64,000 nucleotides of DNA from Chloroflexota bacterium (GTDB taxonomy: Bacteria; Chloroflexota; Dehalococcoidia; GIF9; UBA5629). Shown one piece after another: positions 47,975 to 64,000 of this stretch. Location of the stretch: NCBI GenBank assembly GCA_037443085.1, contig JBBIPA010000002.1, forward strand, positions 79,658-143,657. Direction: 5' to 3'. The notes under the pieces are model-generated. The model ran no database searches, had not been told where the DNA came from, and was given only the letters and a program-made list of their open reading frames with translations. Position 1 is the stretch's first letter, and each line of letters starts with the position of its first letter. Both the position numbers and the translations under genes were made by a program.

Positions 47975-49294
47975 ATGGATTGGAAAACGCAACATAAAGA
48001 AAAACTCACCACCGCAGAAGAAGCCATTAACATCATCAAGTCGGGAGACTATGTTGCTTTTGCCTATGGGGTCGAACCTTTCGCCCTGGGGCTGGCGGTG
48101 CTTAACAGAGGCATAGAACTGGGTGGTCTGAAGGTATTGGTGCCAGCGCCGGGAAGAGATTTCGGCTGGTATGACCCCGGTATGGAGAGTCTCTTTCAGG
48201 TAGAAGTGGCTCACGTGCTTCCCGTAATGCAGCAAACAATGGCGGAGCGAAGGTGCGACTTCGTGGTCGGCTCCTTATCCTGGTCACATGAGCCTGGTGT
48301 CCGCAGGCGACCGGACGTGCTGATAACTCAGCTTTCGCCTCCCGATGAGCATGGCTATTGCAGCATGGGCGCCTCGCTGTGGAACAAGAAGAAAGCCATC
48401 ATGGACGCTAAGGTAGTGCTGGCTGAAATCAACGAAAGCCTGGTCAGAACCTACGGAGATAACTTTATCCATATCTCCGAAATCGACTACTGCGTGGAGC
48501 ATATTCCCAGTGGTCGAGTGCCCGGTGCTACTGATATGCTGGGGCGTAAGACTACCGAGCCGGGCGAGAGAGAAAAAAATATTAAGAAGTATGTCGCTTC
48601 TTTAATCCAAGATGGCGATTGTTTGGAGATCGGCGTTGGCGGCGTTGCCGAATGGCTATTTAAGCTGGATGCCTTCGAAGGCAAGAATGACCTGGGGATT
48701 CACTCGGAGAATCTGCCGCCAGGGATTGTTGATTTGGTCCGACGGGGCATTATCACCGGCCAGAGAAAGCAAATCCATAAAGGTAAGGTAGTATCCACTG
48801 CCTGCGGTGGCAGCAGTAAAGAGGACATGGATTTCATCAATATGAACCCTACCTTTGAACTCTATAGTTCAGACTATGTCCTCGACCCCAGAGTGATCTC
48901 AACGAATGACGATGTAGTGGCAATTAACAGTGCCCTCTCCATAGACCTGACCGGCCAGATTGCTGCGGAATCCATAGGCTCCCGCATGGTCAGCAGCACC
49001 GGAGGGCAACTGGCTTTTGCCATTGGCGCTAACCTATCCAAAGGCGGGCGCAATGTCACCTTGCTCACCTCCACTGCCAGCGGAGATACTATCTCACGCG
49101 TGGTACCCTCGCTCACGCCGGGCACAATCATTACTGTCCCTCGGACTCTTGCTGACATAGTGGTTACGGAGTACGGCATAGCTTATCTCAAGGGCAGGAC
49201 GCAGCGGGAGCGAGCGGAGGCGCTCATTGCCGTTGCCCACCCCAAATTCAGGGACGGATTGAAGGAACAAGCGCAGAATCTGTTTTATCCTTAA
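47975..49294 (+). CDS. acetyl-CoA hydrolase/transferase-family CoA-transferase (4-hydroxybutyrate/succinyl-CoA:acetate type)
   Basis: 439 aa; paralog at 59927-61183 (shared ...ITAHPKFR... C-terminus). Confidence 0.8.
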   Translation: MDWKTQHKEKLTTAEEAINIIKSGDYVAFAYGVEPFALGLAVLNRGIELGGLKVLVPAPGRDFGWYDPGMESLFQVEVAHVLPVMQQTMAERRCDFVVGSLSWSHEPGVRRRPDVLITQLSPPDEHGYCSMGASLWNKKKAIMDAKVVLAEINESLVRTYGDNFIHISEIDYCVEHIPSGRVPGATDMLGRKTTEPGEREKNIKKYVASLIQDGDCLEIGVGGVAEWLFKLDAFEGKNDLGIHSENLPPGIVDLVRRGIITGQRKQIHKGKVVSTACGGSSKEDMDFINMNPTFELYSSDYVLDPRVISTNDDVVAINSALSIDLTGQIAAESIGSRMVSSTGGQLAFAIGANLSKGGRNVTLLTSTASGDTISRVVPSLTPGTIITVPRTLADIVVTEYGIAYLKGRTQRERAEALIAVAHPKFRDGLKEQAQNLFYP

Positions 49295-49323
49295 GCTAAT
49301 ATTATCAGGAGGCTATAAACTAT

Positions 49324-49500
49324 ATGAAATGTCCATTCTGCCAGGAAGAGGTCGATAATTTTATCGAAAAGACCAAAGGCAATGTCACTGAATGTCGTTG
49401 CCCTCGCTGCAGCAGCGTGACAGCAGCTTATCAGAAAGGGATGGAGGAGAAACTGAAGAATCTGGTATCACTGGAAAGGTTTGAAAGGAGTGCCAAATGA
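49324..49500 (+). CDS. small zinc-ribbon protein (58 aa, CPFC...CPRC), translationally coupled to next gene
   Basis: not in ORF track (<60 aa); ATG 49324 after AGGAGG; stop TGA overlaps ATG 49497 (ATGA). Confidence 0.5.
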   Translation: MKCPFCQEEVDNFIEKTKGNVTECRCPRCSSVTAAYQKGMEEKLKNLVSLERFERSAK

Positions 49501-50669
49501 CACGGGAAACCACCGCTCAAATCTCGGAAGGACATATCACCAGCGAAGCTCTTGAGGAGTGGGAGAAGCGCATCGGAGTGAAGCTTCGTATTGGTAACAT
49601 CTTTAATCAGTATGTCTCCAAAGAAGCAATTAGGAACTATGCCTGGGGCGTAGGAGACCCCAATCCACTATGGCTGGATGAAGAATATGCCAAGAAGACC
49701 CGGTATAAAAGGCTGGTAGCTCCGCCTAACTGGCTCTATAGTGTTTTCCCAACCTGGGTTCTCCAGGGCTTGCCCGGGGTTCATGCCTTTCATTCAGGAA
49801 ATGATTGGACATTCCTCAAGCCGGTGTTTATGGGTGATACCATTACACCGGAGGCCATTTTCACCGGCTTCGACGTCAAGGCCAGCAAATTTGCTGGCAA
49901 AATGGTCAGAGAATACCAGAGAGCAAACTTCTACAATCAGAGGGGTGAGTTAGTTGCCTATACCGACCTGTGGCTGGTCCGTGCCGAGAGGGCTGCTGCC
50001 AGAAGCACTGGCAAATATTCAACCCTGAAACTCCCCCATCCCTGGACAGAAGAAGAGCTGAAAAATGTTGACCAGGAAGTGCTCAACGAGCAAATTCGCG
50101 GCAGCAATCCCAGATACTGGGAGGACGTCAATGTGGGAGATGAATTGCCACCGGTAATCAAAGGTGTTTTTGGCTTAACAGACATGATCGCCTATACGCT
50201 GGGTGCCGCCCCGGTGCAGGTAATGGCACATAGAGTATCACTGGAGCTTTATAGCAAACATCCCGCCTGGGCACTGCGCGACCCCAATACCTATGCCTGG
50301 GAACCAGTCTATGCCGTCCACTATAACAAATCAGTGGCCAATGCCGTTGGTTTACCTTATCCCTATAATGCTGGCGCTCAAAGCCAGAGCTGGTTAATCA
50401 ACCTGCTCACCAATTGGATGGGCGATGATGGCTGGCTGAAGAAAAATTACGCTCAGTACAATCACTTTGTCTACCTCTCCGATGCCGTCTGGTTCAGGGG
50501 CAAAGTTGTCAGAAAATATATCGATGACGAGGGCGAATACTGCGTCGATATTAAAACCAGTGCCATAAACCAGAGAGGCGAGGATACAGTGCCCGGCTTT
50601 GCCACCATTGCACTGCCATCGCGCGACAAAAAGGTCTGGCCAGTGGATAGAAGGATGCCTAAGAAGTAA
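49497..50669 (+). CDS. MaoC-like double-hotdog (R)-hydratase/dehydratase
   Basis: 390 aa with two hotdog-fold halves. Confidence 0.65.
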   Translation: MTRETTAQISEGHITSEALEEWEKRIGVKLRIGNIFNQYVSKEAIRNYAWGVGDPNPLWLDEEYAKKTRYKRLVAPPNWLYSVFPTWVLQGLPGVHAFHSGNDWTFLKPVFMGDTITPEAIFTGFDVKASKFAGKMVREYQRANFYNQRGELVAYTDLWLVRAERAAARSTGKYSTLKLPHPWTEEELKNVDQEVLNEQIRGSNPRYWEDVNVGDELPPVIKGVFGLTDMIAYTLGAAPVQVMAHRVSLELYSKHPAWALRDPNTYAWEPVYAVHYNKSVANAVGLPYPYNAGAQSQSWLINLLTNWMGDDGWLKKNYAQYNHFVYLSDAVWFRGKVVRKYIDDEGEYCVDIKTSAINQRGEDTVPGFATIALPSRDKKVWPVDRRMPKK

Positions 50670-50719
50670 GAATTGCAGCAGGGCGCTAAATCATTAAATA
50701 AATTAAAGGAGGAGGCATA

Positions 50720-51733
50720 ATGACAGCAGAGCGTGTCGTCAAGGATGATTACTTCAAGTTTGACGTCGAGGCGCATTTATGGCCGGATACCAGTGATATA
50801 AAATTTTATCCTGGCTTCCAATGGGAAGAGCCGGCATTCCAGGGCGTCACCCGTATTTTAGGCATTTCCAAGGTGTGGGAAACTAAGACCAAACACGGTG
50901 ATGTGGAGTTTCCCAAGTCCAATGACCCCGAGGTACTCATTGAACGGATGAACAAGTACGGAGTGGATATGGCATGCATTGTTCCCGAATCAGGCTGGGG
51001 GAAAACCCATACGCGAGCCATTTCCACCAATGGTTACATTTTGCAGGCCTACGAGAAATTTCCTGACAGGTTCGTCTTTACTGCCAATGTCGGCCCGATA
51101 ACTGTCAGGGGCATCGACCATGCTATGTGGGAAGCCGAGTTCCTGGTTAAAGAGAAAAACTGCAAAATGATAAAAATGTATACCCCTGAGGATACCTATA
51201 TCGATGACAGGCAACTATGGCCCTTTTACCAGAAAATTTCCGACCTGGGCGTGCCAATTGCCGTTCACCTGGGCTGGTGCTGGGTGCCGCCTAACTTATC
51301 CAAATATTGCCTCACCGAACAACTGGATGAGGTAGCTACTGCTTTCCCCAAGTTGAACTTTATTGCTTACCACGCTGGTTGGCCCCGTTTTCATGAGTTG
51401 AACATGATTGCGGCTGTCCATCCCAATGTGTACATCAGCCTGAGCGTATTGCTGGCATGGTGCATCACCGCGCCGAGGAGAATAGCCGAGATTATCGGTG
51501 AAGCCATTCAGTTTGCTACTGCCGACAAGGTTATGTTTGGCACTGACTACTGCAATTCCGAGATTATGATAAAGTATGCCGTGGAAGGCTTCCGCAACTT
51601 CCAGATTCCCAAGGATATGCAGGAAGGCTATGGATTTGAACCAATTACCGAGGAGGATAGGCGTAAAATTTTTGGTCTTAACCTGGCTAAATTGATGGGC
51701 ATTGATCCCAGAAGGAGGGTACCGAAGATATAG
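50720..51733 (+). CDS. amidohydrolase-2 family metal-dependent hydrolase/decarboxylase (ACMSD/LigW/LigJ-like)
   Basis: 337 aa TIM-barrel metallo-enzyme pattern with His/Asp ligand positions. Confidence 0.7.
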   Translation: MTAERVVKDDYFKFDVEAHLWPDTSDIKFYPGFQWEEPAFQGVTRILGISKVWETKTKHGDVEFPKSNDPEVLIERMNKYGVDMACIVPESGWGKTHTRAISTNGYILQAYEKFPDRFVFTANVGPITVRGIDHAMWEAEFLVKEKNCKMIKMYTPEDTYIDDRQLWPFYQKISDLGVPIAVHLGWCWVPPNLSKYCLTEQLDEVATAFPKLNFIAYHAGWPRFHELNMIAAVHPNVYISLSVLLAWCITAPRRIAEIIGEAIQFATADKVMFGTDYCNSEIMIKYAVEGFRNFQIPKDMQEGYGFEPITEEDRRKIFGLNLAKLMGIDPRRRVPKI

Positions 51734-51780
51734 TCTTGGACAAGGTAAATTGCTATTTGTTAGTTTAGAGGAGGCAGGAA

Positions 51781-53007
51781 ATGGCTTACGAAAGTTTATT
51801 TAAACCCATAAAGATAAAGGATGTGGAAATACCGAACCGGCTGGGCATGGCCCCCATGAATATCAATTTCACCAGAGAAGGCCATATCAGTGAACAGCAC
51901 ATGGCTTATTTCGGTGCCAGAGCCAAAGGTGGAACAGGTCTGATCATGACCGAGGCGGTCAGAACCAGTGAAGAGGGTACCAACCGGACATTTTATGATA
52001 ATCCCCATATGTGGAAACCAGCACATCAGAAAGGCTTGGCGGAGCTATGTGAAACGGTGCATTATTTTGGTGCCAAAATATTTGCCCAGATGAATATTGG
52101 CCCAGGACCCCAGGGCTCTTCCAAGAAGATGGGCTTGCAGCCCAGGGCAGCATCTGCCAGGCCATTCAACGTAGCTAAGGAAATGGTGCCCAAACAAATG
52201 CTGCCATGGATAGAACGCGGCCAGGTATATATTAGTTTCCAGGGCGAAATGCCGCGTGAGATGACCAAAGATGAAATTAAAAAGGAAACTGAACAGTTTG
52301 CCAAATCAGCCAGCATGGCATTTGTAGCCGGGGTTGACGGCGTCGAGATTCATGCCGCACATGGCTATCTCCTTCATAGCTTTCTGTCACCCCTGTTTAA
52401 CCTCCGTAAAGATGAGTACGGCGGCAGCCTGGAAAACCGTATGAGATTCTTGATGGAGGTGGTCAAAGCAGCCAGAGAGCTATGTGGCTCCAAGGCAATT
52501 ATCGGCGTCCGCGCTAGCTCAGATGAACATATGCCTGGAGGCACTACACTGGAGGACATGAAATTTGTAGTCAAGGAGCTGGAGAAAGCCGGTATGGACT
52601 TTTTCCATCTCTCCGGCGGTTCTTATGAAGCCATGAAATACCTCTTCCCCGATGAAGACGGTACTATGATGGCAGACGGCAAAGCGCTCAAGCAGACAGT
52701 GAAAATCCCTATCATTATCTCCAGCATTCATGACCCCGATATGGTAGATAAGGCGGTAAGAGAGGGGTATTGTGACATAATGGCTCATGGTCGCCCGCTT
52801 ATTGCTGACCCGGAATGGGCGAATAAGGTAAAAGAAGGTAGAGTGAAGGATATTAATAAGTGCACTAGAGACCTCATGTGCCTGGTCAGACTGTTCCAGG
52901 GGTTGCCTGGCAGGTGCACGGTAAATCCCAACTTTGGCAGAGAAAAATACATGCCTGAGTACTGGCGTGGTCCCACCAAGCCAATGCACTGGCGGCGTGT
53001 CGCTTAA
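51781..53007 (+). CDS. Old Yellow Enzyme-family NAD(P)H:flavin ene-reductase
   Basis: 408 aa; OYE TIM barrel (HAAHGYLLHSFLSPLFNLRKDEYGGSLENRMRF). Confidence 0.85.
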   Translation: MAYESLFKPIKIKDVEIPNRLGMAPMNINFTREGHISEQHMAYFGARAKGGTGLIMTEAVRTSEEGTNRTFYDNPHMWKPAHQKGLAELCETVHYFGAKIFAQMNIGPGPQGSSKKMGLQPRAASARPFNVAKEMVPKQMLPWIERGQVYISFQGEMPREMTKDEIKKETEQFAKSASMAFVAGVDGVEIHAAHGYLLHSFLSPLFNLRKDEYGGSLENRMRFLMEVVKAARELCGSKAIIGVRASSDEHMPGGTTLEDMKFVVKELEKAGMDFFHLSGGSYEAMKYLFPDEDGTMMADGKALKQTVKIPIIISSIHDPDMVDKAVREGYCDIMAHGRPLIADPEWANKVKEGRVKDINKCTRDLMCLVRLFQGLPGRCTVNPNFGREKYMPEYWRGPTKPMHWRRVA

Positions 53008-53026
53008 ACGGAAAACAAAAGCTATA

Positions 53027-53063
53027 ATGATAAACGGGCAATTTGCCCGTTTATCATTATAAG
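53027..53063. repeat. perfect 37-bp palindrome ATAATGATAAACGGGCAA-T-TTGCCCGTTTATCATTAT between OYE and mutase genes (terminator/attenuator or operator)
   Basis: 18-bp arms exact reverse complements around a single T. Confidence 0.55.
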
Positions 53064-53101
53064 ACTATGATTGGGAACCAGTTCTAAAGGCTGCAAGCGG
53101 T

Positions 53102-54775
53102 ATGAAAGACAATTTGCGAAAGCTCAAGGAAGCATGGGAGAGGGGACCTGCAGAGGAAGCTAAGAAGCAGCAGAAGGAACGCCAGGATAGATTCCAAACC
53201 GACTCCGGTAATGAAGTTAAAGCTCTTTATACTCCCCTTGACCTGGAAGAGAACGGTTTTGATTATGTAGACGCCCTCGGTTTTCCCGGCAGATTCCCTT
53301 TCACCAGAGGTCGTGATACTCTCGGCTACCGGCAGAAATTCTGGCAGTTCGGTCAATACGCAGCCTACGGAAATGCTGAGGAGACCAATAAAAGATATCG
53401 TTTTCTTTTGGAACATGGTGGCACCAATATTAGTGTAGCGCTGGACATGCCCACCCAGATGGGCTATGATTCCGACAACCCCTTAGCTGAAGGCGAGGTG
53501 GGCAAAGTGGGAGTTTCCGTTGATTCCCTGGAAGATATGGAAACTCTGTTCCAGGGTATTCCCCTCAACAAGCTGAGCCAGATAAGCACCACTGCTAACT
53601 CTATTGCTCCTATCTGGATAGCCATGATTCTGGTGCTCGCTGAAAAACAGGGGGTATCTCCCAAAAGCTTTGTTATCAGACTTCAGAACGATATTTTGAA
53701 GGAATATGTTGCCAGGGGCACCTATATCTTTCCTCCCCAGCCATCGGTTAATATGGCTACCGACGTTATCGCTTATTGCGTAAAAAACCATCCGCACTGG
53801 TTTCCTATGAGTGTTTCCGGCTACCATATTCGGGAAGCTGGCGCCAGCGCCGCACAGGAGATCGCCTTTACCATCGCCAATGCTATTGCCTACAGCGATG
53901 ATTGTGTGGCAAAAAGGATAAAAGCAGAGGACTATCTTTCTAAGCTGGCGGTGTTTTTCAACTGCGGCATGGATTTCTTCGAGGAAATTGCCAAGTTCCG
54001 AGCCATGCGCCGCCTCTGGGCACGAACGCTCAACAAGCGATACAGCATCTCCGACCCCAATGTACTAAACTATTTTATGAGCTGCATGACCGCTGGCAGC
54101 AGTCTGACTGCCCAGCAGCCGATGAATAACACCGTCCGCGTCGCTATTGAATCGCTGGCAGCCGTTTTAGGTGGGGTTCAGGTGCTGTATCCCTGCTCAA
54201 TGGATGAAGCCTATTGTACCCCTACTGAAAAGGCAGTGAAGGTGGCACTGAGAACCCAGCAGATTATCGCCCATGAGTCCGGGGTAACCAGAACAATCGA
54301 CCCGATGGCAGGCTCATATTTCGTAGAGCACCTCACTTCGGAACTGGAAAGGAAGGCTCAGGAATATCTGGACAGGATAGAGAAAATGGGTGGGGCGGTT
54401 CGAGCTGTGGAACTCGGCTATTATCAGGATGAAATTGCCAAGTCCTCTTACCGGATCAAGCAGGATATCGAGAAAAATGAACGCATCATCGTCGGAGTGA
54501 ATCAATACATAGATGAGGAAGAGTTGCCCATAGAGATTTTGAAGGTCGACCCTGCTCTGGAAGAGAAGCAGAAACAAAAGTTGAAAAAGCTACGAAGTTC
54601 TCGAGATAATACAGGCGTCAAGAATGCTCTTAAAAAAGTGAAGCAGGCTGCCGAAAACAATGAGACACTGATTCCTTCGATTATCGATGCAGTAAGAGTT
54701 TATGCTACACTTGGTGAGATGTGTGACATCCTCAGAGGCGTATATGGCGAATATACCGCCCGTAGCGGTTTCTAA
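53102..54775 (+). CDS. methylmalonyl-CoA mutase-type acyl-CoA mutase, large catalytic subunit (split form)
   Basis: 557 aa; FPFTRG motif; Tyr (GQYAAYG) and Arg (VARGTYIFPP) at positions aligning with MCM Tyr89/Arg207. Confidence 0.85.
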   Translation: MKDNLRKLKEAWERGPAEEAKKQQKERQDRFQTDSGNEVKALYTPLDLEENGFDYVDALGFPGRFPFTRGRDTLGYRQKFWQFGQYAAYGNAEETNKRYRFLLEHGGTNISVALDMPTQMGYDSDNPLAEGEVGKVGVSVDSLEDMETLFQGIPLNKLSQISTTANSIAPIWIAMILVLAEKQGVSPKSFVIRLQNDILKEYVARGTYIFPPQPSVNMATDVIAYCVKNHPHWFPMSVSGYHIREAGASAAQEIAFTIANAIAYSDDCVAKRIKAEDYLSKLAVFFNCGMDFFEEIAKFRAMRRLWARTLNKRYSISDPNVLNYFMSCMTAGSSLTAQQPMNNTVRVAIESLAAVLGGVQVLYPCSMDEAYCTPTEKAVKVALRTQQIIAHESGVTRTIDPMAGSYFVEHLTSELERKAQEYLDRIEKMGGAVRAVELGYYQDEIAKSSYRIKQDIEKNERIIVGVNQYIDEEELPIEILKVDPALEEKQKQKLKKLRSSRDNTGVKNALKKVKQAAENNETLIPSIIDAVRVYATLGEMCDILRGVYGEYTARSGF

Positions 54776-54793
54776 CATAATTGCGGAAAGAAA

Positions 54794-55195
54794 ATGGCGA
54801 AGAAGATCAGAGTCTTGGTAGCCAAGCCGGGACTGGATGGGCATGACCGTGGTGCCAAAGTAGTGGCACGTTCGCTTGCCGATGCCGGCATGGAGGTTAT
54901 TTATACCGGCATCAGGCAGACTCCAGAGCAGATTGCCAATACGGCAATACAGGAGGATGTGGACGTTGTTGGTTTGAGCATTCTTTCTGGTGCTCATAAT
55001 ACACTATTCCCCAGAGTGGTAGACTTATTAAAGAAGAAGGGGCGAGAGGATATCGCTGTAATTGGTGGTGGCATTATTCCCCCCGATGATGCCAGAAAAC
55101 TAAAAGAGCATGGCATCGCCGAGGTCTTTGGTCCGGGAACCGACACACGGCGAATAGTAGATTTTATTAAGAAAACGGTTATCAGAGGCAGCTAG
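54794..55195 (+). CDS. acyl-CoA mutase small subunit, cobalamin-binding domain
   Basis: 133 aa; DxHxxG motif ([10 protein letters not shown]), Rossmann B12-binding fold. Confidence 0.85.
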
Positions 55196-55239
55196 AATAT
55201 AGTATTTATCCAAAATATATCAGCTAACGAAGGGAAACA

Positions 55240-55653
55240 ATGTTCCAAAAGATTGACCATATTGGCATAGCGGTCTCAGACTTGAATAAAGCGGTAGAAG
55301 AGTACCAGCAGAAGTTTAGTATAGCTACAAAATACATAGAGGAGCTGGCAGACATCTCCGTGCGAATCGCCTTTATGCCAGTGGGAGAAGTGATGCTGGA
55401 ATTGATTGAGCCGCTCACGCCGGGTGAGGGGCGCGTTGCTGAATTTCTGAAAAAGCACGGTGAGGGGCTTCATCATATAGCCTACAGGGTTGACGACCTG
55501 GAAGCCGTGTTAGCCAAAATGAAGAAAGAAGGTGTTAAGCTAATAGATGAAAAGCCCAGACCCGGTGGTGGCGATTCCTGGATTGCTTTCTTAAGTCCCC
55601 AAGAAACCAATAATGTGCTGACAGAGCTGGTGCAGAGGGAAAGAGAACTGTAA
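55240..55653 (+). CDS. methylmalonyl-CoA epimerase (VOC/glyoxalase family)
   Basis: 137 aa; IDHIGIAV...HHIAY metal-ligand pattern; directly after mutase subunits. Confidence 0.75.
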   Translation: MFQKIDHIGIAVSDLNKAVEEYQQKFSIATKYIEELADISVRIAFMPVGEVMLELIEPLTPGEGRVAEFLKKHGEGLHHIAYRVDDLEAVLAKMKKEGVKLIDEKPRPGGGDSWIAFLSPQETNNVLTELVQREREL

Positions 55654-55672
55654 AGCAGAAAGGAAAAAGCCT

Positions 55673-57259
55673 ATGAACATCCGAGAGCTGCTGGAAAGCC
55701 GTGCCAAATCGACTCCACAAAAGGTCTACCTCTATTTCCAGGACAAGAAGATAACCTATGGCGATTTCAACCAGCAGGTAAACAGGGCGGCAAATAGCTT
55801 CCTGCGCCTGGGGATTAAAAAGGGAGACAATTTCGCCATTATGGCCCCCAATTCTCCTGAATTCCTTTATGCCTGGTTTGGCTTGAACAAAATAGGCGCT
55901 GTGGAAGTGCCGGTAAATCTCAACCTGAAAGGTCCGGAACTGGCGTATATCTTCAATCATTCTGAGGCAAAGGGAGTTGTGATACACTCCAACTATATTG
56001 CTACCTTCGAGGAAATTCTGGCGCATCTTCCTGGGGTGAAACACATAATAGTGGTGGGAGGTGAAACGCCAGCGCCCAGAGGGGCAACTCTCTACAAGGA
56101 CTGGGTAGCAGGAGCATCTGGAGAACTCCAGCAGGTCACTATAGCAGACGATGACCCGGCGGTTATCATTTACACTTCAGGAACCACCGGTAATCCCAAA
56201 GGTGTTCTCCTATCTCATCGTGGTTGGGTGCTCACTGGAGAATCCTGGGCATATATGATTGGGGCTAAATCAGATGACCGCATCATGACCTCTAACCCTC
56301 TATTCCATGCCAATGCTCAATGCTACTCTACCATGGGCAGCCTGGCGGCAAATGCCAGCTTAATTCTCCTAGAGCAATTCAGCCGGTCTCGTATTCTAGA
56401 GCAGTCACGACACTACGGTTCAACAATTGTTGTCTTGGTTGGACCAGCCATGCCGATGGTCTGGAGTCGACCGGTTCAGACTGACGATGGCGATAACCCC
56501 ATAAGGACAATTATGGCTGGAGGGGTGCCTGCGGAATATTACTATGACTTTGAAAAGCGGTTTCAGGTGAAGATTCACACGGCATATACGCTAACCGAGG
56601 CAACCTATGCTATCATGTCGCCACGGGAAGGCACCCAGCCCAGAAAACCCACTCCCGGCGTGGGCTTTGCCATGGAGCATCCTGACCCTTCTATCCGTAA
56701 TGAAATCAGGATTATTGATGATAATGATGCTGATGTGACACGAGGTTCGCAGGGGCAGTTTATTGTGAAAAACCCGGCAGTGATGCTTGGTTACTTTAAG
56801 GATGCCGAAAAAACTGCCGAGGCCAAGCGTAATGGCTGGATTTATACCGGTGATATCGGCTATCAGGACGCGGACGGTTACTATTTCTTTGTGGGGCGGA
56901 GCAAGGATGTGCTCCGCAGGAGAGGAGAGCTTATCTCGCCAGCTCAAATAGAAGGAGTCATTAATACGCATCCAGAAGTGGCTGATTCTGCAGTCATCGG
57001 TGTTCCCTCGGGACTGGGCACCGCCGAGGAAGAGGTCAAAGCCTATGTGATTCTAAAACCCGGCGAATCGGTGACGCCGCAGGAAATAGTTGCCTGGTGC
57101 CAGAAGAGCCTGGCTGATTTCAAGGTGCCCCGCTACATTGAGTTTCGCACCGAGTTTCCCAGAACGCCTCTGGGGAAAATACAAAAGAATGTTTTCAAGA
57201 CCGAGAAGAAAGACCTCACTGAAGGCTGTTACGACCGCGAGAAAGACATTAAGAAGTAG
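55673..57259 (+). CDS. AMP-forming acyl-CoA synthetase/ligase
   Basis: 528 aa; IYTSGTTGNPKGV AMP-binding motif, YTGD hinge, C-terminal catalytic Lys. Confidence 0.85.
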   Translation: MNIRELLESRAKSTPQKVYLYFQDKKITYGDFNQQVNRAANSFLRLGIKKGDNFAIMAPNSPEFLYAWFGLNKIGAVEVPVNLNLKGPELAYIFNHSEAKGVVIHSNYIATFEEILAHLPGVKHIIVVGGETPAPRGATLYKDWVAGASGELQQVTIADDDPAVIIYTSGTTGNPKGVLLSHRGWVLTGESWAYMIGAKSDDRIMTSNPLFHANAQCYSTMGSLAANASLILLEQFSRSRILEQSRHYGSTIVVLVGPAMPMVWSRPVQTDDGDNPIRTIMAGGVPAEYYYDFEKRFQVKIHTAYTLTEATYAIMSPREGTQPRKPTPGVGFAMEHPDPSIRNEIRIIDDNDADVTRGSQGQFIVKNPAVMLGYFKDAEKTAEAKRNGWIYTGDIGYQDADGYYFFVGRSKDVLRRRGELISPAQIEGVINTHPEVADSAVIGVPSGLGTAEEEVKAYVILKPGESVTPQEIVAWCQKSLADFKVPRYIEFRTEFPRTPLGKIQKNVFKTEKKDLTEGCYDREKDIKK

Positions 57260-57294
57260 CTATACAATTCACTCTGGCGAATTAGGGAGATAAC

Positions 57295-58704
57295 ATGATA
57301 GGGATAACATCATACGGAGCTTATATACCCTTCCACCGCCTGGGGAAGGAAACCAAAAACTGGAACTCAGCCACAGAAAAAGCCGTGGCTAATTTTGATG
57401 AAGACAGTATCACCATGGCCGTGGCTGCGGCCAATAATTGCCTTAATGGCTTTCCGCTCGAGGGTGTGGGCACAGTCTTTTTCGCCTCGACCACTGCCCC
57501 CTATAAAGAAAAGAGCAATGCCGGCATTGTTGCCATCGCCAGCGACCTTCCCTCTGATACATTCTGCCTGGATGTCACCGGTTCGCTAAGAGCAGGAACC
57601 AATGCCCTAAAGTCCGCTATTGATGCTGTGAGCAGCAAGCCAGAGAGGCAAGCGCTGGTAGTTGCCTCAGACCTGCGTATTGCGCAACCTCGCTCTGACA
57701 TGGAAGGGGTTATCGGCGATGGGGCTGCTGCCCTGTTGCTGGGGGACGATAACGTCATTGCTGAGTTTATAGATTGCTGCTGCACCTCCCAGGAGATAGT
57801 GGATGTCTGGCGAGCCGAACAGGATAGTTACATCCGCACTTGGGAAGATCGGTTCGTTGCCGAGCAAGGTTATTTGAAGTTACTGCCCGAGGTTGTCACC
57901 CATCTCATGAATAAGCACAAACTGAGCGTCAAGGACTTTGCCAGAGTAGCGCTCTATGGTATGGATGTTAGAAGGCATCAGCAAATGGCTACCAAGCTTG
58001 GCTTTGACGCCAAGACACAGGTGCAGAATCCCCTGCTTAATTCGGCAGGCAATACTGGCGCTGCCTCGGTTCCGATGATGCTGGTGGCTGCTCTGGAAGA
58101 GGCTAAACAGGGAGACCTGATTCTGCTGGCAAACTATGGCAATGGCGCTGACGCATTTATTTTCAAGGTAACAGAGCAGATCGAAGCGATTAGGAAAAAT
58201 AGACGCGGTGTGGGAGCTTATCTTAATTCTAAGAGGATACTTCCTGACTATGAAACCTATCTCACCTGGCGGGGATTGTTTGATAAAGCACCGCTGCAAC
58301 GGCGTCCCCCCATGCGCACACCATCTCCCGCCGCTATGGCGAGGGAAATCAGCAAAAACCTGCGGTTTCACGGCACTAGGTGTCAACACTGTGGCTATCC
58401 ACAGTATCCGCCGCAAAGAATATGTACCAGATGTCATACCAGAGACAAGTTCGAAGACTATCGCTTTTCCGACAAACGAGCCAGCGTATTTACTTATACC
58501 ATGGATGCTCTGGCTCCTACTCTGGACCCGCCTATGGTGGTGGCGGTGATTAACTTTGAAGGCGGCGGCAGGGCATTTTGTGTCATGACCGACCGTGACA
58601 CCAGCAAATTAGAAGTGGGCATACCAGTCGAAATGAGCTTCCGCAAATTATCTTCTTCGGAAGGAATTCATAACTATTTCTGGAAATGCTTACCCATAAG
58701 ATAA
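57295..58704 (+). CDS. HMG-CoA-synthase-like (KAS III fold) domain lacking catalytic Cys/His, fused to C-terminal DUF35 zinc-ribbon/OB-fold domain
   Basis: residues 1-330 align with HMGCS but nucleophile position reads GSLRAGT (Leu) and His position reads ALYGMD (Tyr); C-terminal CQHCGYPQYPPQRICTRCH plus OB fold. Confidence 0.7.
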   Translation: MIGITSYGAYIPFHRLGKETKNWNSATEKAVANFDEDSITMAVAAANNCLNGFPLEGVGTVFFASTTAPYKEKSNAGIVAIASDLPSDTFCLDVTGSLRAGTNALKSAIDAVSSKPERQALVVASDLRIAQPRSDMEGVIGDGAAALLLGDDNVIAEFIDCCCTSQEIVDVWRAEQDSYIRTWEDRFVAEQGYLKLLPEVVTHLMNKHKLSVKDFARVALYGMDVRRHQQMATKLGFDAKTQVQNPLLNSAGNTGAASVPMMLVAALEEAKQGDLILLANYGNGADAFIFKVTEQIEAIRKNRRGVGAYLNSKRILPDYETYLTWRGLFDKAPLQRRPPMRTPSPAAMAREISKNLRFHGTRCQHCGYPQYPPQRICTRCHTRDKFEDYRFSDKRASVFTYTMDALAPTLDPPMVVAVINFEGGGRAFCVMTDRDTSKLEVGIPVEMSFRKLSSSEGIHNYFWKCLPIR

Positions 58705-58713
58705 GGAGACTCT

Positions 58714-59907
58714 ATGGCAGAAGGAATCAAAGATAAAGTCGCTGTAATCGGCATGGGTTGCGTGAAATTTGGCGAGAACTGGGAACAAAGCGCTGCCGAT
58801 ATGATCATTGAGGCTGCCTACGAAGCCTATGAGGATGCCGGTGTAGATTCTAAAGATATTAAAGCTGCCTGGGTAGGAACCACTCAGGCTGGGGTCCGCG
58901 GCAATCAACTGGCAGTCCCGCTAAAATTAGAGTATATACCCATAACCAGGGTAGAAAACGCGTGCGCTACCGGAACCGATGCCTTTCGCAATGCCTGCTA
59001 TTCTGTGGCCGCCGGGGTATATGACATGGCTCTGGCTGTAGGCGTAGAAAAGATTAAAGATACCGGCTACAGTGGCCTGGAAACATCCTTTGCCCGCCAT
59101 AAGGCGCAGGATACCTGGGTCGACCCCGAAGCCTTTATGGGTATGCCGGCTCAATTCGCCATGGCAGCCACCCGGTATTTCTACCGTTATAAATTGGGTT
59201 ATGATGAAGGCAAGCGAATACTGGCTAAAATCTCGGTCAAGAGCCATCACAATGGAACTCTCTCACCTAAAGCCCATCTCCACCGCGAGATCACCGTGGA
59301 ACAGGCGGTGAATGCCCCCATGATTGCCTGGCCTCTGGGGCTATTTGACTGCTGCGGCGTCAGCGACGGCGCTGCGGCGGCCATAGTGACCACTCCTGAG
59401 ATAGCCAGGAAATACCGTGATGACTATATTCTGGTAAAAGGTCTGGGCTTCTCCTGCGGTGCTGACCAGGCACAATTGCAGGATGACTATGACTTCACCC
59501 ATTTCGAAGAAACGGTAACCGCTGCCAAGCTGGCATATCAGGAAGCCGGCGTGAAGCAACCTCGCAAAGAAATCAGCCTTGCCTCCGTCCATGACTGTTT
59601 CAGTATCACCGAGCTGATAACCTATGAAGACCTCGGCTTCAGCCCTGCCGGCAAGGGAAAAGAAGATGTGGACGCTGACACCTTCACCTTGCAAGGAGCA
59701 TTACCCGTGAATACTGACGGTGGACTCAAGTGTTTCGGACATCCCGTGGGCGCCAGCGGCATACGCATGATTTACGAAATCTACAAGCAGCTTCAGGGCA
59801 AGGCTGGACCACGTCAACTGAAAGACCCCAAGCTGGGCTTAACCCATAATCTGGGCGGTTTGCCCGGTCGATTTGTTTGCTCGGTGGCTATATTCGGTCG
59901 GAAATAG
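58714..59907 (+). CDS. thiolase (SCP2/archaeal type, the kind that partners DUF35 proteins)
   Basis: 397 aa; N-terminal VAVIGMGCVKFGE; catalytic Cys in ENACATGTDAF; C-terminal GHPVGASG. Confidence 0.85.
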   Translation: MAEGIKDKVAVIGMGCVKFGENWEQSAADMIIEAAYEAYEDAGVDSKDIKAAWVGTTQAGVRGNQLAVPLKLEYIPITRVENACATGTDAFRNACYSVAAGVYDMALAVGVEKIKDTGYSGLETSFARHKAQDTWVDPEAFMGMPAQFAMAATRYFYRYKLGYDEGKRILAKISVKSHHNGTLSPKAHLHREITVEQAVNAPMIAWPLGLFDCCGVSDGAAAAIVTTPEIARKYRDDYILVKGLGFSCGADQAQLQDDYDFTHFEETVTAAKLAYQEAGVKQPRKEISLASVHDCFSITELITYEDLGFSPAGKGKEDVDADTFTLQGALPVNTDGGLKCFGHPVGASGIRMIYEIYKQLQGKAGPRQLKDPKLGLTHNLGGLPGRFVCSVAIFGRK

Positions 59908-59926
59908 GCCGCTCTGACTGACTTCC

Positions 59927-61183
59927 ATGTCCAAATTTGTCAGCGCTCAACAGGCTATACAAGCTATAGAGCCGGGAGGGACCGTCTTCCTGGGCGAGTC
60001 CTGCGGTGAACCCCAGACGCTGGTAGAAGCATTAGTTGAAGACAGAGAGCGGCTGAGAGGCACCCGTATCCTCGACTCCAGGCGCATCAATGGTTCCAAG
60101 CTGATTCCCTTCTGCTATTACTTCAAGGTTATTAGCTTCCAGTTCGCTGCTGATATTGCCCGGGCAGCCGAGAAAGGTCTGATTGACCACCTGCCGCTAA
60201 AGCTTTCCGAAATGCACCGACTGTTCTCACCAAAGGGTCCTGTTCAGGTTGACGTTGCCCTGGTGCAGGTTTCTCCTCCCGACAGCGAAGGCTACTGCAG
60301 CTTTGGAGTCTGCGTGGGATACACCTTGGAAGCAGCGCTGAGCGCTAGGATGATCATCGCTGAGGTAAATCAGCAGATGCCCAGAACCTATGGCGGTAAT
60401 GCACTGCCCATAGAGAAGTTCGACTATGTCGTTCGCTCCTCCCGACCGCTGCTGGAATATCCTGTGCCCAAAGTCGAGGATGTGCATATGGAAGTGGCTA
60501 AAAATGCGGCGCGGCTTATCGGCGATGGAGCTACCCTCTGCCTCGGCCTTGGTTCAGTACCGGAAGCGATATTAAAGTGCTTACAGGGGAAGCGCGATTT
60601 AGGGCTGCATTCAGGGTTGATAACCGATGGCATTATCCAGCCTATCAAGGATGGCATCATCACCAACAAAAAGAAGAGCCGGGATAGAGGAAAAACAATC
60701 TCGGCGCAGGCAATGGGCAGCAGAGAGCTGTTCCAGTTTCTGCATGAAAATCCACAGGTAGAAATGCGACCCTATTCTTATACGCATGATATCAACATAC
60801 TGGCAAAAACGAACAACTTTACCCTGATTAATTCAGCAATCGAGGTTGACCTCACCGGACAGCTCAATGTCGAGTCTATCGGTGATGTCCAGTTTGGCGC
60901 CGTGGGTGGACAGGCTGACTATATCCGGGGAACCGCCTTATCCCAGGGCGGCAAGAGCATAACCGCCCTCACCTCTACCACTAAGAACGGCAAAACCTCC
61001 AGAATCGTGCCCCAGTTCAGCGCCGGCACCGTGGTTAGCATCCCGCGCTACGATGTCCAGTACGTGGTCACTGAATATGGCATTGCCGAGCTATGGGGCA
61101 AAACGCTCGCCGAAAGACGTGAAGCCCTCATCACCATCGCCCACCCCAAATTCCGCGGCGAACTCTATCCCCCTGCCAGTTAA
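59927..61183 (+). CDS. second acetyl-CoA hydrolase/transferase-family CoA-transferase
   Basis: 418 aa paralog of 47975-49294. Confidence 0.8.
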   Translation: MSKFVSAQQAIQAIEPGGTVFLGESCGEPQTLVEALVEDRERLRGTRILDSRRINGSKLIPFCYYFKVISFQFAADIARAAEKGLIDHLPLKLSEMHRLFSPKGPVQVDVALVQVSPPDSEGYCSFGVCVGYTLEAALSARMIIAEVNQQMPRTYGGNALPIEKFDYVVRSSRPLLEYPVPKVEDVHMEVAKNAARLIGDGATLCLGLGSVPEAILKCLQGKRDLGLHSGLITDGIIQPIKDGIITNKKKSRDRGKTISAQAMGSRELFQFLHENPQVEMRPYSYTHDINILAKTNNFTLINSAIEVDLTGQLNVESIGDVQFGAVGGQADYIRGTALSQGGKSITALTSTTKNGKTSRIVPQFSAGTVVSIPRYDVQYVVTEYGIAELWGKTLAERREALITIAHPKFRGELYPPAS

Positions 61184-61516: not shown

Positions 61517-62176
61517 ATGAGAAAGCTTTTCAAAATTGAGGGGATTCCCAGACCCGGCGCCATAGTCTATTCGGCAGTCGTGGCCAAGAGCCCTGTCATG
61601 CAGGACTTCTACCACATAGTGGCGGAAGAAGTGCTATCAAAGATATCTTCTGGCAGAATACTGGATATAGGAACAGGTCCAGGGTATCTTCCGCTCGAGA
61701 TTGGTCAGAAATCCAAAGACATCGAGATTAAGGCTATCGATATTTCACCTGCCATGGTAGAGATAGCCAGGCGGAATGCCCGGGAAATAGGGTTACAAGA
61801 GCGTGTGGAGTTCCTCTTCGGCAGTGCTGATAACATGCCATTTACCGAGGGATACTTTGATTTAATCGTGAGCACCGGCAGTTTCCATCATTGGGCGGAG
61901 CCTGAAGCGTGTCTTAAGGAAATATATCGGGTACTCAAGAATGGCGGCGAAGCCTGGATTTACGACCTGAGGCGAGATATCTCGAAAGAGGCGAGGCTGG
62001 AGGCGAGAAGGAGGTATGGCTGGCTATTATCTTCTCTGTTCTTGTATGTTGTCAGACTCCATTCCTCAATAGGCGCAAAGGAGGTACAGGAACTCCTTTC
62101 CTCTCCAGAGCTATATTTCTCTTCAAAGAGGGTGGAAGATAGAGGAGTTATCCTCAAACAAGCACTGCAGAAATGA
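61517..62176 (+). CDS. class I SAM-dependent methyltransferase (UbiE/COQ5-like)
   Basis: 219 aa; ILDIGTGPGYL SAM motif I. Confidence 0.8.
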   Translation: MRKLFKIEGIPRPGAIVYSAVVAKSPVMQDFYHIVAEEVLSKISSGRILDIGTGPGYLPLEIGQKSKDIEIKAIDISPAMVEIARRNAREIGLQERVEFLFGSADNMPFTEGYFDLIVSTGSFHHWAEPEACLKEIYRVLKNGGEAWIYDLRRDISKEARLEARRRYGWLLSSLFLYVVRLHSSIGAKEVQELLSSPELYFSSKRVEDRGVILKQALQK

Positions 62177-62184
62177 AATATCAG

Positions 62185-62994
62185 CTACGATAATGGTATA
62201 TCGCCTAAGTTCACGTCCTTTTCAGTGTTGATTGAATCTATGGCCTTGGTTTTGCCGCCCTTCTCTATCTTCAAGGAAAAGGTGCCTGTCTTCAATCCTT
62301 CAAACCAGAAGTCTCCGAAGCCATCTGTGGTGGTAGTCAGCTTTTCTCCGCTCTTGGCATTTGTCAAAGTGCATGTTGCGCCGATGACAACATCCTCCTC
62401 AACGGGATAATAAACCGTACCAGCCACAAATTTCTTGGGAATGTTCAAATAATATACCTTTGGCTGGGCGTTAAGCTCGGGATGCAGTACCTCGGCTTTG
62501 CTTATCAGGGTGCGCAGTTCGAACTCTTCGCCGAATTTTATCGCTTCGTGGGGGCAGGCATCGGCGCATCTGGGCTCCTGCCATCCCTTATCGAGTAGAT
62601 GAGCACAGCCGGTGCACTTTTGAGCCAGGTTGAGGTCCTCGTTGAAGTAGATGACGCCGTAGGGGCAGGCGTCCACGCAGAGCTTGCAGCCGGTACACTT
62701 GGCCGGGTCGATGATAACCAGTCCGTCGTCTCTGCGGTATATAGCACCCTTGGCAGGACATGCCGGGATACAGGGAGCATTGGCGCAATGCATACATATC
62801 CTGGGGACATAGTGCATCTTGACCTTGGGCACGGTTCCCCTGACAAACTCATTAATCTTCAGCCAGAACTGCCCGGTATCGGGTTGAGGCTTGGCATAGG
62901 GTGCCCAGTCATTGCCCACATGCTCGTCCTTGCAGGCAATCTGGCAGTTGTAGCATCCGTTACATTTGGAAACATCGATAACAAAGGCTTTCAT
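62185..62994 (-). CDS. FeS (beta) subunit of a DMSO-reductase-family molybdoenzyme: four ferredoxin-type Cys motifs plus C-terminal beta-sandwich domain
   Basis: 269 aa; CNGCYNCQIAC, CMHCANAPCIPACP, CTGCKLCVDACP, CTGCAHLL...CADACP; about 100 aa extra C-terminal domain. Confidence 0.85.
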   Translation of the reverse strand: MKAFVIDVSKCNGCYNCQIACKDEHVGNDWAPYAKPQPDTGQFWLKINEFVRGTVPKVKMHYVPRICMHCANAPCIPACPAKGAIYRRDDGLVIIDPAKCTGCKLCVDACPYGVIYFNEDLNLAQKCTGCAHLLDKGWQEPRCADACPHEAIKFGEEFELRTLISKAEVLHPELNAQPKVYYLNIPKKFVAGTVYYPVEEDVVIGATCTLTNAKSGEKLTTTTDGFGDFWFEGLKTGTFSLKIEKGGKTKAIDSINTEKDVNLGDIPLS

Positions 62995-64000
62995 TTATTC
63001 CATCCCTCCTTCGACCCAGGCGTTGAAGCGTAATCCAGAAGCCGGGTCATACTCTCTTTCGAATGCTGCAGGGTGTTGCTGCCGCCACTCTTCCATCTGA
63101 GCCATGCTGACCCTCTCCACCTCGACCAGGTAGCCACTGGTAGCCATGCCGCCACAATGCTTGGAGGTTATTCCTTTGGGAGATATTAGGTTAATGGCTC
63201 CGCCGCGGTCGAGCTTTCCCGGCATGATATAGTCGACCCGTGCTCCGTGGTCCATGGACAAAACGCCGGGCATTATCCTTTCCCACACCAATGCGCCGCC
63301 AAGAACCGCTCCTCTTTCGTTATATATCTTCACGATGTCGCCATTCTTTATGCCTCTCCTGGCGGCATCTGAGGGATGCATCCACAGAGGCTCGTACATG
63401 TATCCATCAGGCCCTTTCACCTTGCAGGTTGGGGCTTCCCTTGACCATGATATGTCATCACATTGAGCATGAACACGCCACCTGCCGTGATTGGAGATAA
63501 TGAGCAGTGGATACTTCTTAGCTCTTTCACTGGAGAGCCTTTCATCGTGCGTTTCGCTTTTTTCAATCCACTTCGGCACTGGCGGTCTTTCCTTGTCATC
63601 GGGGAAGTGCTTGGCCAGCCTCTCGGAGTAGAACTCTATCTTGCCGCTGGGTGTTTGCAGTGGATTCTTTTCAGGGTCTTTATAGAATGCTATCAGACCG
63701 GCCGGGTCATTTTCCCAGTCAGTTCTCTGCGGAATCACGTAGTATCCTTTTTCGTTAAGCTCTTCCCAGCTAATCAGGTCGGCCACTCTGGACTTCTCAT
63801 AGCCGAGTTTTATCCATTCCTCAACAGTCTTGCCTTCGGTCATCTCATCATACATATCCAGCTTCTTGGCTACTTCGCAGACAATGTCATAGTCGCTCTT
63901 GGACTCCCCCAGGGGTTCAATGCATTTGCGTTCCGGGAAGAGTAATGAATATTGCATGCTGCCAGTGTCTCCACCGATATCCTCTTCTTCGAATTTAGTA
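62995..64000 (-). CDS. molybdopterin (Mo-bisPGD) oxidoreductase catalytic alpha subunit, C-terminal part only (gene continues beyond window end)
   Basis: frame open to 64000; C-terminal molybdopterin dinucleotide-binding barrel pattern; stop abuts beta subunit start. Confidence 0.8.
   Translation of the reverse strand, partial: TKFEEEDIGGDTGSMQYSLLFPERKCIEPLGESKSDYDIVCEVAKKLDMYDEMTEGKTVEEWIKLGYEKSRVADLISWEELNEKGYYVIPQRTDWENDPAGLIAFYKDPEKNPLQTPSGKIEFYSERLAKHFPDDKERPPVPKWIEKSETHDERLSSERAKKYPLLIISNHGRWRVHAQCDDISWSREAPTCKVKGPDGYMYEPLWMHPSDAARRGIKNGDIVKIYNERGAVLGGALVWERIMPGVLSMDHGARVDYIMPGKLDRGGAINLISPKGITSKHCGGMATSGYLVEVERVSMAQMEEWRQQHPAAFEREYDPASGLRFNAWVEGGME

Follow-up and report, generated by a model that had tools for sequence, protein, structure and literature searches.

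An inactive HMG-CoA-synthase-like domain fused to DUF35 and paired with an SCP2-type thiolase in a Dehalococcoidia operon

Several protein complexes combine a thiolase-fold enzyme and a DUF35 protein with a subunit shaped like 3-hydroxy-3-methylglutaryl-coenzyme A (HMG-CoA) synthase (HMGCS or HMGS). In the archaeal complex (PDB 6ESQ, from Methanothermococcus thermolithotrophicus), these are three separate proteins of the biosynthetic mevalonate pathway and the HMGCS is active, its catalytic residues being given as Glu82 and Cys114 (PMC6392133) or, as an E-C-H-N tetrad, E82, C114, H238 and N270 (PMC12960953). In PhlACB (2018), Cys83 and Gly115 of PhlA stand at the Glu and Cys positions, catalysis takes place in PhlC, and a working dodecamer requires both PhlA and PhlB (PMC6392133). 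Liao et al. (Nat Commun 2026; PMC12960953) solved MucABC, found that PhlA and MucA have both lost the tetrad, and surveyed 1,030 bacterial HMGS-ACAT-DUF35 loci, 1,001 of which lie outside biosynthetic gene clusters. They also expressed a pair from Pseudomonas fluorescens in which HMGS and DUF35 are fused and the tetrad is absent, the thiolase (ACAT) retaining the Cys, HDxF and GHx motifs. This pair made neither HMG-CoA nor acetoacetyl-CoA and cleaved acetoacetyl-CoA thiolytically, a reaction nearly abolished by H294Y; as the only assayed member, it was suggested to be an 'evolutionary intermediate not yet recruited into a pathway' (PMC12960953). Taken by itself, the thiolase of the archaeal and Muc complexes is insoluble or inactive, and all three proteins contribute to the interface at which CoA is bound (PMC12960953, PMC6392133). 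Here we describe a gene pair of this type (57295–59907) in a 64,000-nucleotide stretch of DNA from a Chloroflexota bacterium of the class Dehalococcoidia (assembly GCA_037443085.1, contig JBBIPA010000002.1, positions 79,658 to 143,657). The whole stretch is referred to below as the window, and coordinates are window positions on the + strand unless marked (-).

The upstream gene of the pair (57295–58704) encodes a protein of 469 amino acids (aa) in which an inactive HMGCS-like domain is fused to DUF35 (zinc ribbon plus OB fold), as judged from the open reading frame, Pfam, NCBIfam, HMMER searches against the PDB, AlphaFold2 and Foldseek. Its aa 1–328 (57295–58278) form an HMGS/KAS-III-like thiolase-fold domain, delimited by alignment to the archaeal HMGCS chain 6ESQ_I with the codons verified; HMMER matched aa 2–328 to this chain (E = 1.9e-31) and aa 352–468 to the DUF35 chain 6ESQ_E (E = 2e-15). 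A linker and the N-terminal helical segment of the DUF35 part (aa 329–356, 58279–58362) consist of near-invariant columns with a conserved RRPP...PS motif (R336, R337, P338, P343 and S344). The rubredoxin-like zinc ribbon follows at aa 357–384 (58363–58446; Pfam PF12172, zf-ChsH2), with C363, C366, C377 and C380 as ligands, and the OB fold, which aligns to 6ESQ_E, at aa 393–450 (58471–58644; PF01796, OB_ChsH2_C); ACP_syn_III_C is the remaining Pfam domain. An earlier note on this DNA, made from the letters alone, had claimed an HMGCS alignment of about 330 aa and a C-terminal DUF35 domain, and both were borne out. The best NCBIfam model was the archaeal-type HMG-CoA synthase NF003274, at 224.4 bits and under its cut-off of 244, and the score against the HMGCS model TIGR00748 (154.4 bits) was likewise under the cut-off (353.35). 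A single-chain AlphaFold2 model built with 117 homologues has a predicted local distance difference test score (pLDDT) of 91.7, with 74–91 in the linker segment, and a predicted template modelling (TM) score of 0.92. In Foldseek its top match was 6ESQ_I (TM score 0.89 on the target, root-mean-square deviation 2.1 Å), followed by PhlA (5MG5, 5M3K and 9SKH) and then MucA (9VBO and 9VBT), showing that the HMGCS/KAS-III thiolase fold is present. An assembly or frameshift artefact was rejected and the fusion taken as real, because the length of about 469 aa recurs in hundreds of independent sequences.

Catalytic positions were counted in the HMMER alignment to 6ESQ_I, which is gap-free around these residues, with the M. 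thermolithotrophicus enzyme as reference and all codons verified. Glu82 is replaced by Thr66 (57490–57492), Cys114 by Leu98 (57586–57588, in the context SLRAGT) and His238 by Tyr221 (57955–57957, in VALYGMD), and Asn270 is kept as Asn253 (58051–58053), the sole retained member of the tetrad. The Leu and Tyr that the earlier note had read at the nucleophile and His positions were recovered, and the Glu, which it had not checked, proved to be gone as well. It had also raised the matter of homologues annotated as active HMGCS; such annotations exist as automatic names only, the window protein itself staying below the NCBIfam cut-off (224.4 against 244 bits).

The loss extends to all relatives examined. 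Neither among the 120 homologues listed (the close clade) nor among 136 wider representatives at 50% identity was Glu, Cys or His found at positions 66, 98 and 221, respectively (0/120 and 0/136). In the close clade, where the mean column identity is 63%, Thr66 is present in 119, Leu98 in 110, Arg99 in 117, Tyr221 in 108 and Asn253 in 106 of the 120 proteins; among the 136 representatives, Thr66 is kept in 114, Leu98 in 96 and Arg99 in 122, with Tyr221 and Asn253 variable. All four zinc-binding cysteines are present in 120/120 and in 133–134 of the 136. Since the replacement residues (Thr66, Leu98 and Arg99) are themselves conserved, the HMGS-like domain is under selection rather than decaying, and since the triad is missing from all 136 representatives while the zinc cysteines and the thiolase motifs persist, its inactivation is ancient and family-wide. 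A replacement nucleophile was also sought, and no conserved Cys was found near the former active site: Cys91 and the Cys160–162 run are not conserved and were rejected, and Cys49 is conserved, yet lies in a helix (aa 38–50) distant from the catalytic loop.

The downstream gene (58714–59907) encodes the presumed catalytic subunit, an SCP2-type thiolase of 397 aa with the Pfam domains Thiolase_N and Thiolase_C_1, a score of 574 bits with NCBIfam NF004810 (cut-off 403), and the thiolase of the archaeal complex, 6ESQ_A, as its best PDB match (2e-60, 208 bits). Scores were much lower for PhlC (90–94 bits) and Ltp2 (6OK1_A, 87.7 bits), and the model for BbsB, NF053628, gave 166.6 bits against a cut-off of 750. 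The three thiolase motifs are intact, namely Cys84 in NACATG (codon 58963–58965), His293-Asp-Cys-Phe (HDCF, 59590–59601) and Gly-His343-Pro (GHP, His codon 59740–59742), and all three are invariant in 82/82 partner thiolases of related loci; His293 is offset by no more than one residue from His294, which is essential in the P. fluorescens ACAT (PfACAT). The 9-nucleotide gap claimed in the earlier note was confirmed by the coordinates: the spacer (58705–58713, GGAGACTCT) runs from the TAA stop of the fusion gene to the ATG of the thiolase gene and holds a GGAG ribosome-binding site, which suggests translational coupling of the two genes. Both genes share one reading frame. Because the triad is absent from every relative examined, no substitute Cys is available and the thiolase motifs are intact in 82/82 partners, the best reading of the HMGS-like-DUF35 protein is that its role is non-catalytic, either structural or in CoA binding; this agrees with the "dead scaffold" proposed in the earlier note.

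Searching 5.8 billion proteins, we found that the 120 matches listed are 429–480 aa long and cover 91–100% of the query (nearly all of them 100%), nearly all with DUF35 Pfam domains. An exhaustive search of 50%-identity cluster representatives gave 580 matches at E<=1e-30, of which the best 150 are nearly all 460–490 aa long and match end to end. Scanning a single genome from each GTDB species gave at least 590 loci, and locus statistics were taken from the best 80 (labelled L001 and so on). Of these, 61 belong to Chloroflexota (47 labelled Dehalococcoidia) and the others to Desulfobacterota, Bacillota, Nitrospinota and Armatimonadota; the window matches contig DAOUAX010000239.1 of the metagenome-assembled genome (MAG) GCA_034432715.1. 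A thiolase gene 54–82% identical to that of the window lies directly downstream of the fusion gene in 74–76 of the 80 loci, mostly after 0–40 nucleotides or with the genes overlapping, and the exceptions are almost all at contig ends; only in L019 is downstream sequence present with no thiolase match. Full-length fusions with 31–36% identity occur in cultured degraders (Rhodococcus, Variovorax and Novosphingobium), where they are labelled 'OB-fold domain-containing protein' beside an 'acetyl-CoA acetyltransferase'; these also lack the triad, and their thiolases keep the motifs. The plasmid sequences searched yielded no Pseudomonas homologue. The cultured homologues are surrounded by genes for acyl-CoA dehydrogenases, short-chain dehydrogenases/reductases (SDRs), crotonase or MaoC hydratases, CoA ligases and transferases, a ring-hydroxylating dioxygenase, a P450 and a FadD3-family ligase. 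Acyl-CoA dehydrogenase is also the commonest non-housekeeping neighbour in the 80 loci (17/80). Two of the 50%-identity representatives carry additional domains: P0204 (911 aa) reads HMGS-like-DUF35-SDR-SCP2 and P0192 (722 aa) HMGS-like-DUF35-SCP2-SCP2, both of which carry Thr in place of the Glu, and Leu or Gln in place of the Cys. SDR and SCP2 domains are typical of (R)-specific, peroxisome-type beta-oxidation. A third long protein, P0159 (723 aa), which includes pieces of ATP-grasp and molybdopterin-binding domains, was set aside as an apparently chimeric gene call.

The family-wide loss of the triad, the strict conservation of the partner thiolase and the occurrence of the pair in operons of the beta-oxidation and B12-mutase types together suggest a working degradative thiolase. 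We therefore propose, with a probability of about 0.72, that the two genes encode an obligate heteromeric degradative beta-ketoacyl-CoA thiolase. In such an enzyme the 397-aa SCP2-type subunit would perform the chemistry, Cys84 acting as the acyl-accepting nucleophile and His293-Asp-Cys295-Phe and His343 supplying the acid/base and oxyanion residues. The DUF35 zinc-ribbon/OB module would clamp the thiolase dimer to the HMG-CoA-synthase-shaped domain, and this domain, by analogy with the archaeal complex, would keep the thiolase folded and soluble and would still be part of a shared CoA-binding cleft, half of which it would supply if the interface resembles that described for the archaeal complex (PMC12960953, PMC6392133). 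The non-catalytic partner may in addition dock neighbouring pathway enzymes, as the ketothiolase (KT)/DUF35 hub of Sulfolobus acidocaldarius does. Strict gene adjacency and homology to three solved complexes give indirect support for a physical complex of the thiolase with the fusion protein. The P. fluorescens homologue and the gene context point to the thiolytic, degradative direction. The pair would then carry out C-C cleavage within a catabolic operon of 12 genes (47975–61183), in which an imported organic acid would be activated by the ligase and two CoA-transferases and the enoyl-CoA hydrated by MaoC; thiolysis would yield acetyl-CoA and a carboxylated C3/C4 product, which the epimerase and the methylmalonyl-CoA-type B12 mutase would convert to succinyl-CoA.

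Several points weigh against this proposal. The activity of the Dehalococcoidia-centred clade is read from genes alone, and its tie to the P. fluorescens protein is indirect, consisting of a shared architecture and motif pattern and of 31–36% identity to other proteobacterial and actinobacterial fusions. Because thiolases are reversible, the direction is taken from context only. The operon contains neither a 3-hydroxyacyl-CoA dehydrogenase nor an acyl-CoA dehydrogenase, so a complete turn of beta-oxidation is not encoded locally. The conservation of Thr66, Leu98 and Arg99 and, in this clade, of Tyr221 and Asn253 could mean that the pocket does more than scaffolding. Finally, BbsAB-type thiolases manage with DUF35 alone, which leaves the need for an HMGS-shaped domain unexplained.

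The genes around the pair are consistent with catabolism. The operon begins with a CoA-transferase of the acetyl-CoA hydrolase/transferase family (439 aa, 47975–49294; Pfam and NCBIfam), a MaoC-type double hot-dog (R)-specific enoyl-CoA hydratase (390 aa, 49497–50669), a metal hydrolase/decarboxylase-family protein with an Amidohydro_2 domain (50720–51733) and an Old-Yellow-Enzyme-type flavin oxidoreductase (51781–53007), the last three assigned by Pfam. Pfam and NCBIfam matches identified the following two genes as the large subunit (53102–54775) and the B12-binding subunit (54794–55195) of a split B12-dependent acyl-CoA mutase. A methylmalonyl-CoA epimerase (55240–55653; TIGR03081, 123.3 bits, cut-off 114.95) and an AMP-forming acyl-CoA ligase (528 aa, 55673–57259; Pfam and NCBIfam) come next, the latter directly upstream of the fusion gene, and a second CoA-transferase of the same family as the first (418 aa, 59927–61183; open reading frame, Pfam and NCBIfam) starts 19 nucleotides past the thiolase gene. 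The best PDB match of the mutase is the 2-hydroxyisobutyryl-CoA mutase HcmA (4R3U, 462 bits). However, the positions of Tyr89 and Arg207 of methylmalonyl-CoA mutase (MCM) read Tyr (FGQYAAY) and Arg (VARGTY) instead of Ile and Gln, by which a 2-hydroxyisobutyryl-CoA-type mutase was rejected; because of this Tyr/Arg pair, and because 'SVA' replaces Asp117 of HcmA, the substrate is probably carboxylated, of the methylmalonyl/succinyl-CoA type. No gene for a MeaB-type chaperone was seen in the operon.

Much of this arrangement recurs in an uncultured Dehalococcoidia contig (L039), which shares both mutase subunits, the epimerase, the ligase, the fusion, the thiolase, MaoC and a CoA-transferase with the window at 50–68% identity; genes for an IclR regulator and a LIV-type ABC importer lie ahead of this core. 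There the ligase homologue (58% identical) holds the same position, the MaoC homologue (58%) follows the thiolase gene directly and the homologue of the first CoA-transferase is 59% identical; the Amidohydro_2 and Old-Yellow-Enzyme genes were not found in this locus. Mutase genes lie near the module in five more loci (L006, L011, L012, L048 and L078). Genes for polyketide synthases (PKS) or non-ribosomal peptide synthetases (NRPS) are absent near the window module, whose neighbours are catabolic and CoA-metabolism genes.

Convergent with the operon, the window ends in genes for a small Fe-S/CarboxypepD_reg subunit and two molybdopterin-containing large subunits (62185–64000, -), full-length versions of which are present in L001 (6447–7256, 7257–9911 and 10378–12897). 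Their best PDB match is pyrogallol hydroxytransferase, the transhydroxylase of Pelobacter (4V4C_A, 439 bits). Similar genes adjoin fusion/thiolase modules in L022, L049 and L057, in the last case co-directionally and immediately upstream, which hints at a link to the catabolism of polyphenols (trihydroxybenzenes).

The earlier note regarded the arrangement of the pair as uncharacterised. That view does not hold, as it is preceded by PhlACB (PMC6392133), MucABC and the assayed P. fluorescens pair (PMC12960953), the last work being the only description of HMGS-DUF35 fusions found in our literature search. The window pair belongs to a known type of thiolase complex and opens no new category of system; what is new is the Dehalococcoidia-centred clade and the operon context. 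Like the P. fluorescens pair, it combines an HMGS-DUF35 fusion devoid of Glu, Cys and His with an adjacent ACAT/SCP2-type thiolase carrying Cys, HDxF (His294 there, His293 in the window) and GHx, and has no PKS or NRPS genes beside it. It differs in its B12-mutase/epimerase/ligase operon and in keeping the tetrad Asn (Asn253, in 106/120 of the close clade and variable in the wider family). The window clade, 31–36% identical to the proteobacterial and actinobacterial fusions retrieved, is likened to the P. fluorescens protein by architecture and motifs.

The archaeal complex has the same three components and is the top or joint-top sequence match for all three modules of the window pair, but its HMGCS is active (Glu82/Cys114/His238/Asn270), its proteins are separate and its pathway is biosynthetic, whereas the window protein is dead and fused and its context is catabolic. 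In PhlACB (PpATase; 5M3K and 5MG5) and MucABC (SmaATase; 9VBO and 9VBT), DUF35 holds an inactive HMGS-like subunit to the thiolase-fold catalyst, as predicted here, and the partners are required for activity although the thiolase-like subunit catalyses. These complexes are, however, made of separate proteins encoded in biosynthetic clusters, act on phenolic or tetramic acceptors and have lost HDxF, which is intact as HDCF in the window. BbsAB, the benzoylsuccinyl-CoA thiolase of Geobacter metallireducens (7PXP), is comparable as a degradative SCP2-type thiolase with HDxF that depends on a DUF35 zinc ribbon in an anaerobic catabolic pathway; an HMGS-like component is missing from it, and its DUF35 protein (BbsA) stands alone instead of being fused. 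In the steroid side-chain aldolases Ltp2-ChsH2(DUF35) and Sal-Shy, a fused DUF35 also tethers a thiolase-fold enzyme, but there DUF35 is fused to a MaoC hydratase and the tethered enzyme is an aldolase, whereas the partner here is HMGS-like and the thiolase residues are intact. In the S. acidocaldarius ketothiolase/DUF35 fatty-acid-synthase assembly (bioRxiv 10.1101/2024.07.05.601840), an SDR reductase and a MaoC dehydratase are bound to the KT/DUF35 hub. Both the SDR/SCP2 fusions P0204 and P0192 and the MaoC gene of the window fit such an arrangement, although the assembly is archaeal and biosynthetic and has no HMGS-like domain.

Run in the Claisen direction, the pair would be a biosynthetic condensing complex making acetoacetyl-CoA or longer 3-oxoacyl-CoAs for a storage polymer, a lipid or an isoprenoid, with DUF35 recruiting the enzyme of the following step, as happens in the archaeal mevalonate complex and in that of the Sulfolobus fatty-acid synthase. 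The closest solved relative is indeed the biosynthetic archaeal thiolase/HMGCS/DUF35 complex, and about 20 Dehalococcoidia loci have the pair amid housekeeping genes. We nevertheless hold this to be unlikely: the exergonic HMGCS reaction that pulls the unfavourable condensation is dead, the fused P. fluorescens complex gave no acetoacetyl-CoA (PMC12960953), no synthesis-type reductase or enoyl reductase adjoins the pair, and the ligase, CoA-transferases, mutase and epimerase of the window operon are enzymes of activation and catabolism. An HMGS-like domain with a new activity of its own, such as a decarboxylase, a hydrolase or a second substrate pocket formed by Thr66, Arg99, Tyr221 and Asn253, would explain why the replacement residues are conserved well over the 63% column average of the close clade, why the tetrad Asn is kept, unlike in PhlA, MucA and the P. 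fluorescens protein as described (PMC12960953), and how an operon without an obvious decarboxylase or dehydrogenase might complete its pathway. This too seems improbable to us, given that Tyr221 and Asn253 vary in the wider family and in the cultured homologues, that the Cys has no replacement nucleophile, and that catalysis in PhlACB maps wholly to PhlC (PMC6392133).

The other two possibilities concern the thiolase-fold subunit, and each clashes with a motif, HDCF in one case and Cys84 in the other. A C-acyltransferase of the PhlACB/MucABC type would act as a Friedel-Crafts acylase or deacylase, with or without CoA, on a phenolic compound or cyclic beta-diketone such as a phloroglucinol derivative. 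The fusion family profile is equidistant from the two kinds of relative, scoring PhlA (189 and 186 bits) as high as the archaeal HMGCS (185.5 bits), and molybdoenzymes resembling pyrogallol-phloroglucinol transhydroxylase adjoin the module in the window, L022, L049 and L057. PhlC and MucB, however, lack HDxF, the hallmark of the acylase switch (PMC12960953), whereas HDCF is present in 82/82 partner thiolases; the window thiolase scores 208 bits with the archaeal thiolase and only 90–94 with PhlC, and no PKS or NRPS genes lie nearby, all of which makes such an acyltransferase very improbable. The last candidate, a retro-aldolase of the Ltp2/Sal type bound through DUF35, had been offered as an alternative activity in the earlier note, and the pairing of DUF35 with a thiolase fold and the MaoC gene of the operon do recall ChsH1-ChsH2-Ltp2 and Shy-Sal (PMC11321319, PMC12329534). 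Because the Cys84 nucleophile, HDCF and every other thiolase motif are retained, and with only 87.7 bits to Ltp2 (6OK1_A) and an HMGS-like rather than a MaoC domain as the DUF35 carrier, we regard it as having hardly any likelihood. A degradative thiolase accordingly remains our preferred reading of the pair.

More tentatively, and with odds well short of even, the dead HMGS-DUF35 protein might be the hub around which a bacterial metabolon for (R)-specific, peroxisome-like beta-oxidation is organised, with many substrate-specific paralogues in Dehalococcoidia, its HMGS pocket (Thr66/Leu98/Arg99) repurposed for CoA or acyl binding and the window pair cleaving an unusual branched, dicarboxylic or polyphenol-derived 3-oxoacyl-CoA. 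If so, the metabolon would consist of the SCP2-type thiolase, a MaoC hydratase and an SDR dehydrogenase or SCP2 domain, and its product, for example methylmalonyl-CoA made without a carboxylase, would feed the B12 mutase and epimerase directly. The pair is among the commonest unassigned thiolase types in uncultured Chloroflexota/Dehalococcoidia, whose genomes often have several copies, and its automatic annotation as 'HMG-CoA synthase', which wrongly implies a mevalonate pathway in metabolic reconstructions, needs correcting. In contrast to the 'evolutionary intermediate' view of the assayed member, the family-wide conservation favours a functional degradative enzyme over an evolutionary leftover.

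Further observations concern the copies and range of the module. In L003, L004, L005, L036, L055 and L066, a second fusion-thiolase pair stands in tandem (its members 43–47% and 57–63% identical), and several MAGs have the module on more than one contig (e.g. L030/L031 and L014/L046), which suggests that the copies are substrate-specific paralogues. A four-gene set was found in L014, L020, L025, L028, L037, L041, L050 and L052, in the order divergent second thiolase (31–35% identical), stand-alone DUF35 (~137 aa), HMGS-like-DUF35 fusion and its thiolase, the extra genes lying about 1.4–1.7 kb upstream of the fusion; two DUF35-dependent thiolases are therefore encoded side by side. In about 20 Dehalococcoidia loci (e.g. 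L051, L053, L056, L065 and L073), one copy of the module is located amid genes for an S41 peptidase, SmpB and MinC/MinD, and this housekeeping neighbourhood suggests a core rather than an accessory role for that paralogue. The fusion also has full-length homologues, at 25–27% identity, on haloarchaeal megaplasmids (e.g. NC_013924.1 of Natrialba magadii, 62065–63495, and NZ_CP083667.1 of Haloprofundus halobius), labelled 'zinc ribbon domain-containing protein' beside a 'thiolase domain-containing protein'; the fused architecture therefore extends beyond bacteria.

Elsewhere in the window, a 382-aa protein (28676–29824, -) encoded next to an MFS transporter gene has a double 4Fe-4S domain (Fer4_7/Fer4_16) at its C terminus as its only Pfam match; a relationship to epoxyqueuosine reductase or to reductive dehalogenase is possible. 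Two large paralogues of 621 and 589 aa (36378–38243 and 38930–40699, both -) end in an AhpC/TSA-redoxin domain. In one of them a zinc ribbon stands before this domain, in the other fibronectin-III/purple-acid-phosphatase-N domains do, and such arrangements are unusual for peroxiredoxins.

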